From assembly GCA_963708025.1 (NCBI GenBank), contig CAVPSB010000002.1, positions 128,001 to 192,000 of the forward strand: a stretch of 64,000 nt of DNA, in the 5' to 3' direction. Below, in pieces: positions 3,131 through 48,787 of this stretch; positions within the stretch are counted from its first letter, which is position 1, and each line of letters starts with the position of its first letter. A program made the translations under genes and the position numbers. A model generated the notes under the pieces. That model was not told the origin of the DNA. It worked only from the letters and a program-made list of their open reading frames with translations, and did not search any database. Source of the stretch: an uncultured Candidatus Rokubacteria bacterium (GTDB lineage: Bacteria; Methylomirabilota; Methylomirabilia; Rokubacteriales; DASRDR01).

Positions 3131-3170
3131 CGGAGCCTCCACGACCTGAGAGGGTGTGAATCAATCAATC

Positions 3171-3258
3171 GGGTCCTCCGGCCCCCCCTCCCCCCAGCCA
3201 AAGGCCGAAGGCCGTCGAACGGTGGGGGAGGGGGGTTGGGGGGAGGGCGGGAGGTCCC
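3171..3258 (+). repeat. Palindromic intergenic repeat, family A copy 1
   Basis: GGGTCCTCCG...CCCCCCTCCCCC..CCAAAGGCCGAAGGCCGTC..GGTGGGGGAGGGGGG...CGGGAGGTCCC; matches reverse complements at 24732-24824 and 47500-47611. Confidence 0.85.
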
Positions 3259-3366
3259 GACCTGAAGTCGCGGCCGGCTCGTCCGGCCCGGGCTGTCCCG
3301 TCTGCTGGTACACCCCGATGGCGCCATCATGCGGCCTCTGGCACTGTTCGTTCCGGAGATCACCGC

Positions 3367-4419: not shown

Positions 4420-4845
4420 CTACAGGCTCCGCTTCCGGCCGCGCAGGCCCCGGCGGCTGCCCTTGGTCTTGAAGGGCTTGCCGCGCGGCGCCGGCCGCAG
4501 GCCCCCGCCCCCGCCCCCGCCGAACGGATAGCCGCCTCCGCCGCCGTCCCCGGGCGGGCCCTCGAACGACCGGGGCGGCCGGGGACCTTCGGCGCGACGG
4601 CGGTCGTCGGCCATGTTGATCGTGAGCTTCCGGCCGCCCAGCTCGCGCGAGTTGAAGAGCCTGATCGCCTCGCTCGCCTCGGCCTCGCTCGTGAACTCCA
4701 CGAAGGCGAAGCCGCGCGGACGGCCGGTCTCCCGGTCGGTCGGGAGGCTCACCGCGACGATCTGCCCGGCCGGAGCCAGCAGGGCGGAAAGCTCGTCCCG
4801 GGTCGTCTGGTAGCTCAGGTTGCCGACGAAGATGCGGGCTGCGAT
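4420..4845 (-). CDS. RRM (RNP-1) RNA-binding protein with Gly/Arg-rich tail; probable ATC start
   Basis: AAGGAGG-6nt-ATC GCA GCC CGC ATC TTC GTC GGC AAC CTG gives (M)AARIFVGNLSY (RNP-2); RGFAFVEF (RNP-1). Confidence 0.9.
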   Translation of the reverse strand: MAARIFVGNLSYQTTRDELSALLAPAGQIVAVSLPTDRETGRPRGFAFVEFTSEAEASEAIRLFNSRELGGRKLTINMADDRRRAEGPRPPRSFEGPPGDGGGGGYPFGGGGGGGLRPAPRGKPFKTKGSRRGLRGRKRSL

Positions 4846-4964
4846 GGCGCGCCTCCTTCCTGTCTGACCCCCCGTGACCTCACCTCCCGGTCGCCCGGGG
4901 TCGGGTCACGGCCTGTGTTCCCGTACGGACAGCTTCTCACGACGACCGGCCCCCGGGGGTTAAT

Positions 4965-23855: not shown

Positions 23856-24728
23856 TCACCCGCGGAACCGGGCCTCGGGCAGGCCCCGCACGCCCGGGTC
23901 GAGCGCCAGGATGCCCCCGGCCCACGGCTGCCGGGCGCGGGCCTCGGCCGTCAGGGTGACCGACGCCGAGGTCACGTACAGCACGTCCAGGTCCGGTCCG
24001 CCGAAGGCCGGGCAGGTCGGCTGCTGGACCGGCAGCCTGACGACGCGCTCGACCCGGCCGGCGGGATCGAGCCGGGTCAGTCGCCACCCGCCCCAGTGCG
24101 CGAGCCAGACGAAGCCCTCGGCGTCGACCGTCGCCCCGTCGGGAGCCCCGTCGGCGGCCGGCACCTCGAGGAACGTCCGCCGGTTGGCGATGGCGCCTGC
24201 GTCCGGGTCGAAGTCCCAGGCCCAGACCGTCCGGCGGGCGGTGTCGGCGTGGTACATCGTTCGGCCGTCCGGGCTCCAGCAGAGCGCATTCGGGCAGACG
24301 AGGCCATCGACCAGCCGGTGACACGAGAGGTCGGCGTCGAGCCGGTAGAGGCTCCCGGTCGGCTCGGTTTCCGGGTCGTGCATGCTGCCCGCCCAGAAGC
24401 GGCCCTGGCGGTCGGTCTTCCCGTCGTTGAAACGGTTCTGCGGCCGCTCGGGCTCGGGGTGAACGATCGGGGTCGTCCCGCCGGTCGCCGGATCGAAGAA
24501 GTGGAAGCCCGAGCGCATGGCCACGACCAGCCCGCCCTGCGCGCGCACGGCGAGCGACCCCACGGGCTCGGTCACCGGCCAGCGCGTGTCGGCTCCGGTG
24601 GCCGGATCGAACCGGTGGATCGCTCGCCCCTTGATGTCGGTCCAGTAGAGCCGCCGCTCGAGCAGATCCCAGACCGGTCCCTCGCCGAGCACCGCGTTCG
24701 CTTCGAGCACGCACGTGACGTCGGTTAT
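23856..24728 (-). CDS. SMP-30/gluconolactonase family protein (xylonolactonase-like); probable ATA start, alternative GTG at 24710
   Basis: LGEGPVW, RFNDGKTD..GRFWAGSM, PDGATVDAEG, CPAFGG; GGGAGG-7nt-ATA ACC GAC GTC. Confidence 0.9.
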   Translation of the reverse strand: MTDVTCVLEANAVLGEGPVWDLLERRLYWTDIKGRAIHRFDPATGADTRWPVTEPVGSLAVRAQGGLVVAMRSGFHFFDPATGGTTPIVHPEPERPQNRFNDGKTDRQGRFWAGSMHDPETEPTGSLYRLDADLSCHRLVDGLVCPNALCWSPDGRTMYHADTARRTVWAWDFDPDAGAIANRRTFLEVPAADGAPDGATVDAEGFVWLAHWGGWRLTRLDPAGRVERVVRLPVQQPTCPAFGGPDLDVLYVTSASVTLTAEARARQPWAGGILALDPGVRGLPEARFRG

Positions 24729-24731
24729 TTG

Positions 24732-24824
24732 GGGACCTCCCGCCTACCCCCCCCCTCAACCCCCCTCGCCCACCCATGGACGGTCTTCGGCCTTTGGCTG
24801 GGGGGAGGGGGGAGTCGGAGGCCC
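24732..24824 (-). repeat. Palindromic intergenic repeat, family A copy 2
   Basis: Reverse complement of the 3171-3258 element; its end provides the lactonase SD. Confidence 0.85.
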
Positions 24825-24832
24825 GCACTGCT

Positions 24833-25726
24833 TCACACGGTCTCCGGGGTCAGGGTGATCGTCGCCGCGAGGGTCTCGCCGGGCTCGAGGGTCCGGAGCC
24901 CGGTGTCCGGCCGTCCGGCGGCGGCGAGGTTGACCGCGTCGGTCACGTGGCTGACCGGCTCCGCGCAGAAGAAGGCCTGGCCGGGCGGCGTGTAGAGCAC
25001 GAGGAAGTCGAGCGGCCCCTCTGCGGTCATGGCGAGGCGGGCTCCCCACTCCGGCCACTCGACCACGACATGCCGACTCCAGCCAGTGAAACAGTTGTCG
25101 AGGCCGACCGCGTCGAGGCGGATGCCCCGCGCGGGGTCCGACCCCGGCGGCGGCATCGCCAGCGTCGTCGGCATGACCTCGCGGTCGGTCAGCCACATGC
25201 CGGTCACCCCGGCCTCCAGCGTGGCCCGGGGCGTTCGCACGAAGTAGGGGTGCCAGCCGAGACCCGCCGGCATCGCGGCCTCGCCCTCGTTGGTCAGCGC
25301 CAGCTCCACCGTCAGGCGCTCGGGTGCCAGGGCGACGCGCTGGCGGGCCCGGTAGGCCCACGGCCAGGCGTCCGCCGGGTGCCGGTACTCGATCTCGGCG
25401 TGCGCGGCGTCCACCGCCACCGGGTGCCATGCGGCCTGCCACCCGTGGCCGTGCATGCAATGGGGCAGGGGCGGGCAGTTCAGCGGCAGGGCGACCGCCC
25501 GGCCGCGGAAGCTGAAGCGTCCCTCCCGGATCCGGTTGGAATACGGGACGAGCGGAAAGGCCGCCATGCCGTAAGCGTCGCGCCGGGTGACGGCGTCGGT
25601 CGCGGCGGGGCGTAGCCACTCGATCGGGGTCGCGGCCGTCTCGCGCCAGTACCGGGCGATCGACCCGCCGACGGCCGGGGTCAGCACGAGTCCGGCGTCG
25701 CCCGCGCGCAGCGTGATCGGTTGCAT
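24833..25726 (-). CDS. Aldose 1-epimerase (mutarotase) family protein
   Basis: FPLVPYSNRI, HGHGW, YPWAY-like segment, GLGWHPYF, FCAEPVSH. Confidence 0.9.
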   Translation of the reverse strand: MQPITLRAGDAGLVLTPAVGGSIARYWRETAATPIEWLRPAATDAVTRRDAYGMAAFPLVPYSNRIREGRFSFRGRAVALPLNCPPLPHCMHGHGWQAAWHPVAVDAAHAEIEYRHPADAWPWAYRARQRVALAPERLTVELALTNEGEAAMPAGLGWHPYFVRTPRATLEAGVTGMWLTDREVMPTTLAMPPPGSDPARGIRLDAVGLDNCFTGWSRHVVVEWPEWGARLAMTAEGPLDFLVLYTPPGQAFFCAEPVSHVTDAVNLAAAGRPDTGLRTLEPGETLAATITLTPETV

Positions 25727-29790: not shown

Positions 29791-29922
29791 GTGCCGACGC
29801 CCACGTGCCTCACGGATGCGCTCGGCTGGCCTGGGGGAACCACCGTTGCGCGGTTGCTGCGCGCCAGCGTTCTTCAGTACACTCCACGTCGTTGGATGAT
29901 CCCGGGGTGAGGGAGGCCGGGG

Positions 29923-30630
29923 ATTTTCGACACCAGCGACGAGAGAGTCGTCCCCGAGACCCGCATCGGATTCTGGTTCCTCGGCACGCACACGTGGGTG
30001 ACCCGCGTCCTCCGGGTCGCCCTCGACGATCTCGATCGCTTGTTCCCGAATCGCCGGGCGAGCTACCCCGTCGTGCTCGACGCCGGATGTGGACAGGGCC
30101 GGTCGTTCAAGCTGCTGTGTGAGCGGTTCGCCCCGGAGCGCATCATCGCGATCGACGCTGAGGAGCGATGCCTGGAGCGGGCCCGCGCGGAGGTGGCGCG
30201 AGAGCGGCTGCCGGTTGACGTTCGCTTCGGCACGCTCGGCACGATCGATCTGCCCGACGACAGCGTGGATCTCCTCTTCTGTCACCAGACGTTCCATCAT
30301 CTGGCGCATCAGGAGCGAGCCTTGCGCGAGTTCTATCGGGTGCTGAAGCCGGGCGGGATCTTTTTGTTCGCGGAGTCGACCCGCGCTTACATCCATTCGT
30401 GGATCATTCGCTTGCTGTTCCGCCATCCGATGGACGCGCAGCGCAGCGCCGACGAGTACATGGCGATGATTCGCGCCCAGGGGTTCGTGTTTCAGCCGGA
30501 GAACACGTCGTTCCCGTACCTGTGGTGGAGCCGCTGGGACCTGGGCGCGCTCGAGTGGCTCGGCTTCCCCCCGCCGAAGCACCGCGAGGAAACGCTGATC
30601 AATCTGGTGGCTCGGAAGCCCACCGGCTGA
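29923..30630 (+). CDS. Class I SAM-dependent methyltransferase; probable ATT start
   Basis: VLDAGCGQG, FCHQTFHH, RVLKPGG; GGGAGG-6nt-ATT with in-frame stop at 29908; N-terminal VPETRIGFWFL..HTW lies upstream of the first GTG. Confidence 0.88.
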   Translation: MFDTSDERVVPETRIGFWFLGTHTWVTRVLRVALDDLDRLFPNRRASYPVVLDAGCGQGRSFKLLCERFAPERIIAIDAEERCLERARAEVARERLPVDVRFGTLGTIDLPDDSVDLLFCHQTFHHLAHQERALREFYRVLKPGGIFLFAESTRAYIHSWIIRLLFRHPMDAQRSADEYMAMIRAQGFVFQPENTSFPYLWWSRWDLGALEWLGFPPPKHREETLINLVARKPTG

Positions 30631-46354: not shown

Positions 46355-47498
46355 CTACCAGAACTCGCGCGAGGCCAGCCGGGCGCCCTCGGCCATGCTC
46401 GCCAGCTTGGCCCAGACCACCCCGGGATCCACGGCGGCCTGACCGACCCAGGTGCCGTAGCCGCAGTCGGTCCCCGCGATGACGTTCTCCCGGCCCACCA
46501 GCTTCGCGTAGCGCCCGATCCGCTGCGCCACCAGCTCGGGGTGCTCGATGAAGTTGCTCTTCGACTCCAGGACCCCGGGGATGAGGACCTTGCCCTCGGG
46601 CAGCCGGACGCGCTCGAACAGCCGCCACTCGTGGGCGTGGCGGGGGTTGGCGGCCTCGAACGAGATGCCGCTCGGCCGGGCGGCGAGCACGATGTCGATG
46701 ATGTCCGCCAGCGGCACGTCGTGGTGGTGCGGACCCTCGTAGTTGCCCCAGCACACGTGCATGCGGACCCGGTCGGGCGGGACGTTGGCCAGGGCGTGGT
46801 CGAGGGCCTCCACGTGCAGTCGCGCCATCTTTCGGAACTGCTCGAGGCTCAGGTCGGCGAACTGGATGTGCCGGCCCATGGCGAGGTCCGGGCAGTCGAC
46901 CTGCAGCACGAAGCCGGCCTCGACCACCGCCTCGTACTCGTGACGCATCGCGTCCGCGATGCCGGCCAGGTAGGCTTCGTGGCTCGGGTAGTGGTCGTTG
47001 CGGAAGAAGAGGGAGATGACGCCCGGCGAGGCCGCCGTCAGGAAGGCCTCCTCGGCGCGGGTGGCGGCCAGCGCCGCCCTCAGGTTCTCCGCGTCGGCGA
47101 CCGCGGCCTGCGGATCGCGCACGCTGATCGGCCCGTCGCAGGCCGGGGTCCGGCGCCGCGACCGTCCGGGATCGCCGAAGACCCGCTTGGCCAGCTCGGG
47201 GAAGTCCACCAGGTCGCGGTACCGGAGCGACTGGCTCGCGCCGCCGAACCCGGCCAGGCGATCCTTGACGTAGGTGGCATAGCTCGGCTTGCTGAGCTCG
47301 CCGTCGCTGACGATGTCCACGCCGGCCTCGGCCTGCTTGCGGACGACCTCGGCGACGGCCGAGCGGATGCGCGCGGCCAGGGCCCCGCGGTCGACGGGCA
47401 CGCCCTCCTCCCGGGCGAACATCATGCGGACCAGGTCGTCGGGCCGCGGCAGGCTGCCCGGCGTGCGTGGTGAGGAACCGATCCGTGCTGCGCTTGAT
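46355..47498 (-). CDS. Cobalamin-independent methionine synthase II / MetE-like protein; probable ATC start; frameshift near 47460
   Basis: (M)KRSTDRFLTTH.GSLPRP, SDGE, LQVDCPDL, HVCWGNYEGPH, FEAANPRH.HE, TDCG. Confidence 0.9.
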
Positions 47499-47499
47499 T

Positions 47500-47611
47500 G
47501 GGACCTCCCGCCTACCCGATCGTCCGACGGCCTTCGGCCTTTGGCCCCCCTCCCCCACCCATGGACGGCCTTCGGCCTTTGGCCGGGGGGGAGGGGGGGG
47601 TCGGAAGGGGC
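47500..47611 (-). repeat. Palindromic intergenic repeat, family A copy 3 (two core modules)
   Basis: GGGACCTCCCGCCTACCC..GACGGCCTTCGGCCTTTGG twice..GGGGGAGGGGGG..TCGGA; provides the SD for the MetE-like gene. Confidence 0.85.
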
Positions 47612-47628
47612 TTCACTTGACTCGGCTC

Positions 47629-48787
47629 TCAGCCGGCGAGGGTGAAGCGGGGGTCGGCGGCGGGGATCGGCACCTCGGGGAGCTTCAACTCACGGCGGAC
47701 GAGGTTGGCGCCGAGGTTGATCGCCACGCACTTGTAGAAGGCGATCCGCCGGGCGAGCCCCTCCCGGCCGAACCCGCAGTCGGTGGAGAGGATGAGCCGC
47801 TCGGGCGGCACGTACTCGAGCGCCTTCCGGATCAGGCCGGCCACCACCTCCGGCGGCTCCACGGCCGCGCTGGTGTGGCTGACCACGCCGATCGCGATCT
47901 TCTTGTCGGTGCGGTACCGGCCGAGGAGCGGGAGGTCGCGCCCGCCCGTCGAGGCGCACTCGAGCGTGAGGACGTCGGCGGTGGTCTGCAGGAGATACGG
48001 GAGCGCGCGCTCGTAGGACGGGCGCTCCCAGTAGAGCGGCTGCTGGTTCGGGTTGCCCCAGCAGGTGTGGAGCCAGACCTCGGTCTCCACGCCCCGGATC
48101 TCGCGGTTGACGGCGTCGGTGAAGAACTGGAGATCGGCGTCGGTGGTGCTCGCGTCGACGGTGGCGCTGTGGTGGCGGGGCTCCTCGACCTGGATGACGC
48201 GGCATCCGGCCGCCGCCACCGCCCGGAGCTCGGCGTTGAAGACGTCGGCGACGTCGAGGATCAGCTCGCGCTCGGAGGCGTAGTGCCGGTTCACCAGCAT
48301 CTTGGCCAGCGTCTGGGCGCTGATGGCCCCGAACTTCACCGGCCGGTCGGTGAGCCGCTGGGCCATGCGCCAGAGCGCCGCGTACTGGAGGGGGCCGGCC
48401 CCGATCTTCTCGCCCACCAGGGCCGGCTGGTAGGCCTCCATCACCTCGTAGAGGATGTGGCCCGGCTGGAGCGTCCACCCCGAGGCCCGGGTCCGGTCCA
48501 CGTGACCGGTGATCCCGGTGAGCCGCTCGATCGGGTAGTAGAACCAGGACTTCCCCCCGACGGTGAGGTCGAAGCGGGAGTCTCCGTCGGTCACGATGTC
48601 AAGGCCGGCCCGGACCTGCTCGCCGATGCAGGCACTGCACGGCGTCGAGGTACTGCTCGCGGAAGACGCTGTCGCCCAGCGCCTCCTTGAACGGCCGGCC
48701 GCGCAGCCCCTCGGTGAACCAGGACGGTCGCGGGTAGGAGCCGGTGATCGTCGTCGGCAGCACGAGGTCGCGGGTCGCGTTCAGCAC
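47629..48787 (-). CDS. Second MetE-like (methionine synthase II family) protein; frameshift near 48625; likely leaderless
   Basis: LPTTITGSYPRP.W, TDGD.RF, IQVEEP, HTCWGN, LEC, STDCGFG; TGG-TAGCGT 7 nt before GTG. Confidence 0.88.

Follow-up and report, generated by a model that had tools for sequence, protein, structure and literature searches.

A dispersed hairpin repeat at gene junctions of a Rokubacteria-type genome, with a probable role as Shine-Dalgarno sequence of downstream genes and candidate near-cognate starts

Elements of the REP/BIME type occur in enterobacteria and pseudomonads as hundreds of GC-rich palindromes after gene ends, in tandem or convergent settings, and form mosaics and occasional arrays. 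MITEs such as ERIC and Correia are nonautonomous, have inverted ends and are co-transcribed with their flanks, the expression of which they can alter. The nearest counterpart in concept of the element treated here is the MIRU: mycobacterial MIRUs are short repeats lying co-oriented in operons at start codons, and their insertion is described as doing little harm since the downstream gene is still translated (PMC12548453). The BOX repeats of pneumococci are modular as well and overlap gene ends; BOX encodes the stop codon of 36 coding sequences and can provide start codons for new open reading frames (ORFs) (PMC3049150). In the RNA unfolding model (PMC12548453), a hairpin sequesters the ribosome binding site (RBS) of a downstream gene by base pairing and has to be opened. 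Likenesses to all of these systems come together in a hairpin repeat found in a stretch of 64,000 nucleotides (nt) (hereafter the window, G000:C2:128001-192000) of genome G000, that of an uncultured soil bacterium of the Rokubacteria type.

The element is probably a lineage-specific, nonautonomous and modular hairpin of the MITE/REP type that lies at gene junctions in one orientation, the GGAGG at its 3' end serving as the Shine-Dalgarno (SD) sequence of the next gene and near-cognate start codons being tolerated there. Such a supply of SD sequences together with putative weak starts is supported by position, reading frame, domain coverage and orthology. A stronger version is put forward only tentatively: the repeat may be a self-spreading "junction cassette" that breaks coupled, overlapping junctions and supplies its own stop, SD and near-cognate start, by which dozens of genes (ruvC, ruvB, queA and cobT among them) would have come to initiate at codons other than AUG, GUG and UUG and to depend on the SD of the repeat, with an output that, owing to the anti-SD arm, would be low and sensitive to melting of the hairpin.

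The G000 assembly amounts to 8.17 Mb (71.2% GC) in 49 contigs, with a rated completeness of 99.67% and a contamination of 8.18%. Genes were called with a codon-usage caller trained on long ORFs, which gave 7819 genes covering 83% of the genome, and all gene-context counts rest on this caller or on local frame scoring with the same table.

The repeat family and its place at gene junctions

A sequence-only reading of the window had described a repeat between co-oriented genes at two sites. Both lie on the minus strand with the sequence as described, and they belong to a dispersed family: an iterated two-round nhmmer search gave 494 matches to the repeat profile genome-wide, 0.6% of G000. The 3' anchor could be located in 459 of the 494 matches, GGAGG is intact in 439, and the 13-nt 3' core GGCGGGAGGTCCC has 212 exact occurrences in the genome. 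This recurrence is far above chance. A loose scan restricted to the window, with two mismatches allowed, found 11 sites against 15.9 expected and is uninformative. The copy number is about 480 and the unit length 85-150 nt.

The short unit starts with a 5' motif of the TGAGAGCGTGTGAAGG type, followed by a 5' arm ending in CCTCCG, two C-runs and a small loop. After the loop come two G-runs, a further G-rich stretch and the 3' arm GGCGGGAGGTCCC, behind which GAACTGA is the commonest sequence (86 copies). In longer forms, between one and three modules of the GCCAAAGGCCGAAGGCCG type are added, or else a different internal insert (46-106 nt), and tandem arrays with a spacing of 93 nt are present at C13:69850/69943 and C12:180568/180661. 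The ends form terminal inverted repeats, a 5' arm of the GGGTCCTCC type facing the 3' arm GGAGGTCCC; averaged over 393 copies, 6.9 of the 9 positions can pair. The base before the 5' TGA is C in 118 of 171 copies.

In tandem gene pairs, the anchored copies (459) are co-oriented with the genes in 231 cases and opposed in 29. A well-kept 5' motif is present in 164 copies, 114 of which have co-oriented coding upstream; the upstream stop is the first TGA of the motif in 87 of these 114 and the second TGA in 6. In convergent pairs, 25 of 93 copies have the stop of the neighbour starting at precisely 11 nt after GGAGG. From the use of the 5' TGA as stop and from the convergent stops at 11 nt it follows that the repeat docks on stop codons. 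A sub-family with the end ...GAA(A/G)ATCTCAG (e.g., in G000:C7 and C13) was also observed, the TCA of which is the opposite-strand stop of the convergent gene, and thus the repeat in such a pair is bracketed by stops on both sides. Seven copies, at nearly every junction, are found in G000:C25:159600-165700, a region with the order ruvC-ruvA-ruvB ... tRNA-binding-gene-queA, where for four of the genes the start slot behind the repeat holds CTG or ATC.

Among the same anchored copies the upstream neighbour is co-oriented in 332 and opposed in 41, and convergent spacers hold 43 copies as compared to 7 in divergent ones. Both the strong preference for positions just after co-oriented gene ends and that for convergent over divergent spacers would fit a REP-like RNA element that acts on the upstream transcript, with a stable 3' hairpin protecting the mRNA from exonucleases or marking processing sites and the position of the SD being secondary. 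The very stable GC hairpins seen in the folds point the same way, and an mRNA-protecting role is known for enterobacterial REP. Such a role leaves the spacing to starts and the changes of start codon unexplained, however; it is compatible with an SD-carrying repeat rather than exclusive of it, and as the explanation of the family we regard it as unlikely.

Profile PF01797 of the Y1 (IS200-like/RAYT) transposase had no match in G000, which is 99.67% complete, while it scored in 6 of 14 control genomes. No autonomous parent with the same ends was found: matches to the 5' end only or the 3' end only pair across the modules of 46-106 nt, and none of these pairs encloses a gene. Nor was a parent insertion sequence (IS) for the repeat found in G000. 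Rfam gave no match at gathering score in the whole window and only chance-level microRNA hits at 24600-24950. In a test for target-site duplications, TGA (often CTGAG) was seen to flank both ends in many copies; with TAA-flanked 5' ends, a 3' TAA follows in 1 of 3 inspected cases, and a consistent target-site duplication was not found among the repeat copies whose flanks were inspected. Of 97 slots with ATG, 37 have A as the next base against a background of 34%, hence no ATGA excess, and the sole pair of an empty and a filled site is unclean (148 nt in place of 5 nt). A simple model of TGA duplication at ATGA overlaps was not adopted, given the lack of ATGA excess and the unclean pair.

Related but weaker copies are present in 14 of 30 relatives searched, one of which, in G016, likewise separates a stop from an ATG but has no clean GGAGG. 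The exact 22-mer of the repeat 3' end was found in three JGI metagenome contigs, exact matching being a weak measure of distribution. Within the assembly, contig C40 (20.6 kb) and G000:C13:386-388 kb are two versions of one locus with flanks that are 97.6-98.5% identical, which points either to recent duplication or to another strain within the bin, its contamination being 8.18%. In this 98% identical pair, the C40 junction has a long form of the repeat and ATG, and its C13 counterpart has the short form and CTG; such junctions therefore turn over quickly.

GGAGG, the start slot and orthologous junctions

The 3' end of the 16S rRNA reads ...GGATCACCTCCTTTCT, a canonical anti-SD, and GGAGG is therefore a perfect SD. 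The first in-frame ATG, GTG or TTG after GGAGG was tallied for the 277 copies that are followed by a called gene in the same orientation. It lies at 5-9 nt in 72 copies, at 10-14 nt in 40, at 15-19 nt in 20 and at 20-24 nt in 27; thus 112 of the 277 fall at 5-14 nt versus 47 at 15-24 nt, with still fewer farther out. Local frame scoring, by which co-oriented coding was detected at +30 to +210 in 296 of the 459 anchored copies, allowed the codons at 4-13 nt after GGAGG (the start slot) to be sorted as follows.

127 of 296 copies: canonical start 4-13 nt after GGAGG (ATG 97, GTG 17, TTG 13), with spacing modes of 6-7 and 9-10 nt
73 of 296 copies: only a near-cognate codon in the slot of 4-13 nt (CTG 37, ATC 18, ATA 15, ATT 3)
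88 of 296 copies: frame open, slot without a start-like codon, most with a second SD and a start slightly farther on
8 of 296 copies: in-frame stop after the slot

The proposal that the 3' GGAGG is the SD of the next gene is supported by this tabulation of the genome-wide copies: starts are enriched at 4-13 nt, and the canonical ones found there in 127 of 296 copies go beyond chance. The weak start codons, for which the sequence-only reading had suspected a tolerance at two sites, likewise form a genome-wide pattern (73 of 296 slots). The four near-cognates seen in the slot are exactly the four that are reported in bioRxiv 10.1101/063800 to initiate at about 1-2% of the AUG level in E. coli, i.e., AUA, AUC, AUU and CUG.

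Whether these codons are starts was examined by Pfam searches with 48 copies (loci L007-L054; CTG 26, ATA 11, ATC 10, ATT 1) in which the first canonical start is at least 34 nt away, the sequences being translated from the slot codon. An N-terminal domain match starting before the first canonical start was obtained in 22 of the 48. One of these, L034, has an in-frame ATG at 2 nt past GGAGG that accounts for the match, so that 21 remain. Matches were found, among others, to the following families (residues counted from the slot codon).

RuvC: match 5-151; canonical start at residue 17
RuvB_N: match 24-182; first ~37 residues without a canonical codon
QueA: match 6-346
CobT: match 10-341
Hydantoinase A N-terminal region (Hydant_A_N): match 4-182; canonical start at residue 29
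GFO/IDH/MocA (GFO): match 5-114; canonical start at residue 33
CoA-transferase III (CoA_transf_3): match 11-378; canonical start at residue 22
LNT_N: match 14-172

The genes ruvC and queA are single-copy in G000. In 18 of the 48 candidates, 6 of the 22 included, an in-frame stop lies upstream without a canonical codon in between, and therefore only a non-canonical start is possible in these 18 as assembled; the blocking stop is often the TAG of the ...GTAGGCGGGAGG variant, and the 6 are the strongest cases. In an independent test with repeats that end in ...CTGA, have a coding frame open back to the CTG and are followed by no canonical start within 33 nt, the frame of CTG is the coding one in 24 cases and the other open frame in 3 (binomial p = 2.5e-5).

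Three copies lie in the window, with the features listed here.

24833-24835, minus strand: stop TGA upstream of copy 1, ending the ORF at 24833-25726; 8 nt separate it from the 5' arm
24729-24832, minus strand: repeat copy 1, from after the upstream stop to before ATA, with one GCCAAAGGCCGAAG-type loop module (nhmmer match 24725-24844)
24816-24824, minus strand: 5' arm of copy 1, GGGCCTCCG, with an anti-SD-like CCTCC, paired with the 3' arm in the minimum free energy (MFE) and centroid folds
24744-24746, minus strand: in-frame TAG of copy 1, 6 codons before ATA (open_from = -8)
24736-24740, minus strand: GGAGG of copy 1, perfect complement of the 16S tail CCUCC
24726-24728, minus strand: ATA, candidate near-cognate start of the SMP-30/gluconolactonase-like gene at 23856-24728, 7 nt after GGAGG
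24708-24710, minus strand: GTG, alternative canonical start of the same gene, 6 codons (18 nt) past ATA and 25 nt after GGAGG, without an SD of its own
47496-47643, minus strand: replaced stretch at copy 2, 148 nt where the empty site of a related contig from a soil metagenome has 5 nt (GCATG)
47629-47631, minus strand: stop TGA upstream of copy 2, of the MetE-like gene at 47629-48627; first TGA of the family 5' motif
47499-47628, minus strand: repeat copy 2, long form with two GCCAAAGGCCGAAGGCCG modules (nhmmer match 47495-47631)
47602-47610, minus strand: imperfect 5' arm of copy 2, CCCCTTCCG
47504-47508, minus strand: GGAGG of copy 2
47496-47498, minus strand: ATC in the start slot of copy 2, 5 nt after GGAGG, at the downstream MetE-like gene
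47457-47459, minus strand: GGG run where relatives have GG; in the DNA comparison the extra G shifts the frame, and related contigs omit one letter at 47457
3166-3262, plus strand: repeat copy 3; a co-oriented downstream gene was not detected

The stop at copy 1 aligns with the second TGA of the family 5' motif and is native to the upstream gene, which in relatives ends with ...CCGGAGACC(A/G)CGTGA. The TAG at 24746-24744 is in frame with the downstream gene, and a start from inside copy 1 is therefore blocked. In the relatives' loci, the codon corresponding to ATA is ATG (G002) or GTG (G013, G009, G017, G016 and G011) in 6 of 10, the GTG of G011 forming a GTGA overlap with the stop before it; the four loci that are more distant do not permit a codon-by-codon alignment. 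The ATC at copy 2 is ATG in all 13 relatives' loci, 6 of which have kept the same upstream gene, with an ATGA overlap of stop and start. One contig of a soil metagenome (run X1) joins the positions equivalent to 47495 and 47644 with CATGC in between, an empty site of copy 2. A paralogue of the copy 2 gene at G000:C2:~214.79 kb has an ATG behind another copy of the repeat.

Outside the window, the ATC of ruvB is ATG or GTG, then AGC, in relatives; the CTG of ruvC is GTG (G001) or TTG (G005), with a start 11 codons earlier in the g5 genus; and the CTG-GCG of queA is TTG-GCT, which overlaps the stop of the preceding gene. At five junctions, nhmmer (E up to 10) detected no copy of the repeat in any of 135 relatives' loci, and comparable junctions there are tight or overlapping (ATGA, GTGA) with ATG, GTG or TTG starts. 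Repeat-free orthologous loci thus have ATG or GTG where G000 has ATA or ATC.

Several points weigh against near-cognate initiation behind the repeat. In 25 of the 73 near-cognate copies, a canonical start follows 14-33 nt after GGAGG and is perhaps the real one. The Pfam test is uninformative in 26 of 48 cases, 6 being without a family and 20 having a match that does not begin before the canonical start; of these 20, no fewer than three (L009, L015 and L017) look like ordinary ATG starts. Inside the repeat, 30 of the 48 have an in-frame GTG, TTG or ATG, from which a Gly/Pro-rich N-terminal extension is possible. A start inside the repeat, which the sequence-only reading had named as the case that would undo its own interpretation, is thus excluded as assembled for 18 of the 48 and for copy 1, and possible for the other 30. 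Near-cognate-only slots also occur behind GGAGG outside the repeat (89 versus 881 canonical, compared with 27 versus 70 for the repeat under the same filter), a noisy control that gives only a rough ratio because many such sites are internal to genes. As to the two copies first noted, an in-frame GTG lies 18 nt downstream of the ATA at copy 1, and given this SD-less GTG six codons on, ATA is a likely though not a certain start. The gene behind copy 2 is frameshifted and is therefore a poor example of a weak start: the extra G separates 14 N-terminal codons from the rest of the MetE-like gene (46355-47452), the main frame of which aligns with its orthologues only from residue 17. Either the gene is decaying and a pseudogene or the homopolymer run is in error.

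The remaining objections concern the data. The genes were called with a purpose-made codon-usage caller, not with a standard tool. A coding signal extends at least 10 codons before any canonical start in 369 of 6320 confident ORFs of G000, and many of these resemble frame changes, pointing to assembly indels or to a large number of decaying genes. Because most flagged ORFs look like frameshifts, this screen is useless as a control; only 13 of the 369 are repeat-linked, since in-repeat GTG and TTG count as canonical in it. None of the public sequencing runs contains this strain, the best sharing 0.45 of sampled words with G000. Six RNA runs share at most 0.10, and the contigs assembled from public runs belong to relatives and not to the G000 strain.

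In an alternative view, the repeat is selfish junk that spreads to stop codons at C-TGA sites, its GGAGG being one half of an inverted repeat needed for mobility, with the genes starting elsewhere (at GTG or TTG inside the repeat, giving short extensions, or at canonical codons farther downstream) and the near-cognates being coincidental to the place of insertion. The arms keep to a family consensus and do not covary, 163 of the 459 anchored copies have no co-oriented gene behind them, and docking on stops at both sides in convergent pairs speaks for targeting rather than function; the in-repeat canonical codons in 30 of 48 would provide other starts. This view is nevertheless a rather improbable one, since no upstream canonical start is possible in 18 of 48, the first downstream one would truncate a conserved domain in 21, and the CTG frame is favoured 24 to 3. 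Moreover, ATG makes up 97 of the 127 canonical slot starts despite a genome of 71% GC, and the single-copy ruvC and queA would be left with no start at all.

The reading in which the repeat's GGAGG serves as SD can be set out as a sequence of steps. The repeat would settle on gene ends with C-TGA in one orientation, a directional bias that may reflect an asymmetric target (C-TGA, sense strand) together with purging of harmful insertions. Insertion would have displaced the native ribosome binding site by about 100 nt, the GGAGG of the repeat now acting as the downstream SD and keeping, or partly keeping, the next gene translatable after the native junction was broken. In several dozen genes the start slot would hold a near-cognate, CTG coming from the terminal ...GAACTGA and ATC or ATA from variant ends; these codons would most simply be what remains where the last bases of the repeat (…CTG, …ATC, …ATA) replace or abut the original start. 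Initiation at them would rely on the strong, well-spaced SD and would probably be weak. The CCTCC arm could pair the SD and damp initiation further, which would seem to follow from the inverted-repeat ends and not to be a regulated switch.

Near-cognate starts may not be confined to the repeat. An RNA-binding gene of the RRM type (RNP2 "IFVGNL", RNP1 "RGFAFVEF") on the minus strand of the window has an apparent ATC start 6 nt after GGAAGGAGG at 4843-4860; no repeat is nearby, and the first in-frame canonical codon lies past RNP2. At 29912-29925 on the plus strand, GGGAGG is followed 6 nt on by an in-frame ATT, a possible near-cognate start, with no canonical start for 81 nt and no repeat. An unusual initiator tRNA was considered and rejected: ARAGORN called a normal CAU initiator-type tRNA in G000 and no initiator-like tRNA for CUG or AUC. 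In the same run tRNA-Leu(CAG) was not called, and two tRNA-like genes with four-letter anticodons (gcag and ggcg) and a 95-nt "tRNA-Ile(aat)" were reported; these are probably calling quirks.

The hairpin and a possible coupling switch

In the sequence-only reading, the repeat was a portable coupling or attenuation module in which the CCTCC arm locks the SD until ribosomes terminating upstream free it. The pairing part of this claim stands: the 5' arm is complementary to the SD, and GGAGG is paired with the CCTCC arm in the predicted MFE fold of all four folded copies and in the centroid fold of three. Relatives have overlapping, hence probably coupled, junctions where the repeat has come in, and the stop at copy 1 is only 8 nt from the arm. 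That hairpins sequestering an RBS can be opened by upstream translation is an established mechanism of coupling (review PMC12548453).

Other results speak against the switch. Relative to shuffled sequences, the fold energies give z = 0.07 for copy 1, -0.49 for copy 2, -2.57 for copy 3 and -1.65 for the ruvC copy; the predicted energies are ordinary for a composition of C-runs and G-runs, and exceptional stability was rejected for the two named copies. Compensatory changes between the arms were not found, with 6.89 of 9 positions pairable in 393 copies as compared to 6.85 +/- 0.02 for shuffled partners. In copy 2 the 5' arm is imperfect and the SD is unpaired in the centroid fold. Of 99 scorable copies, 65 have 16-17 nt between the stop and the 5' arm, and only 4 have at most 9 nt. 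The usual 16-17 nt exceed the roughly 10 nt past a stop codon that a terminating ribosome occupies. Opening by termination therefore fits copy 1, with its 8 nt, and not the family; the switch is not supported as a general feature, and the model as a whole is quite unlikely to be right.

A relay of the kind described for MIRUs (PMC12548453) would involve an ORF inside the repeat, running from a GTG 6 nt after the TGA (in 93-nt units) through the hairpin to a 3' TGA that overlaps CTG by 4 nt, where the ribosome would be passed to the next gene. The 93-nt unit has both TGAs in one frame and a GTG near its start, and the tandem spacing of 93 nt equals 31 codons. Over 65 scorable copies, however, the distance from the 5' TGA to the 3' TGA is spread 23:19:23 over the three frames (modulo 3), which is at chance level, although homopolymer assembly errors could hide a real signal in this count; of 11 candidates with a CTG start, one is in frame. 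The relay was rejected and is very unlikely.

An assembly artefact, by which homogenised or mis-polished repeats created false CTG, ATC and ATA codons and false junctions, has in its favour the signs of indels (the frameshift at 47457-47459 included), the contamination of 8.18% and the share of 0.45 with the best public run, but is hardly credible, as it would need substitutions and not indels, the slot codons vary among copies (ATG, GTG, TTG, CTG, ATC, ATA) beside unique flanks, and the C13 and C40 versions differ exactly at the slot within flanks that are 98% identical.

Meaning and comparison with known systems

If this reading is true, a selfish repeat that brings its own translation signals can settle in the stop/start junctions of operons, the most tightly constrained places in a compact genome, and such colonisation can rewrite start codons genome-wide. 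It would also offer a natural set of CTG, ATC and ATA starts, each paired with a perfect SD; in the form of the junction cassette, no other natural set of near-cognate bacterial starts traceable to one mobile element would be as large. For annotation it carries a warning, in that standard gene callers will truncate or miss such genes in Rokubacteria and in similar metagenome-assembled genomes. A well-defined repeat family is added to the record of this phylum. In the literature available as open full texts, no description was found of this family, of a junction repeat carrying an SD, or of such a repeat family in Rokubacteria.

Of the known systems, REP differs from the G000 repeat in being tied to a RAYT/Y1 transposase (PF01797), which was not found in G000, and REP units are shorter. 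REP is not known to give a following gene its SD or start codon. The roles described for ERIC and Correia concern promoters, RNase sites or mRNA stability, and they are not known to supply an SD; for the repeat described here, neither a consistent target-site duplication nor a parent IS was found. BOX has no good SD, and a systematic supply of RBSs to established genes is not described in the part of the source that was available (PMC3049150). Compared with hairpins that sequester an RBS, the typical stop lies too far from the stem, and the structure sits on a mobile repeat instead of having evolved in place. MIRUs, finally, are described as acting through an internal ORF coupled at -4 nt (PMC12548453); in the G000 repeat the frame is random and a consensus SD is present instead, on a GC-homopolymer hairpin with inverted ends that docks on stop codons and belongs to another phylum.

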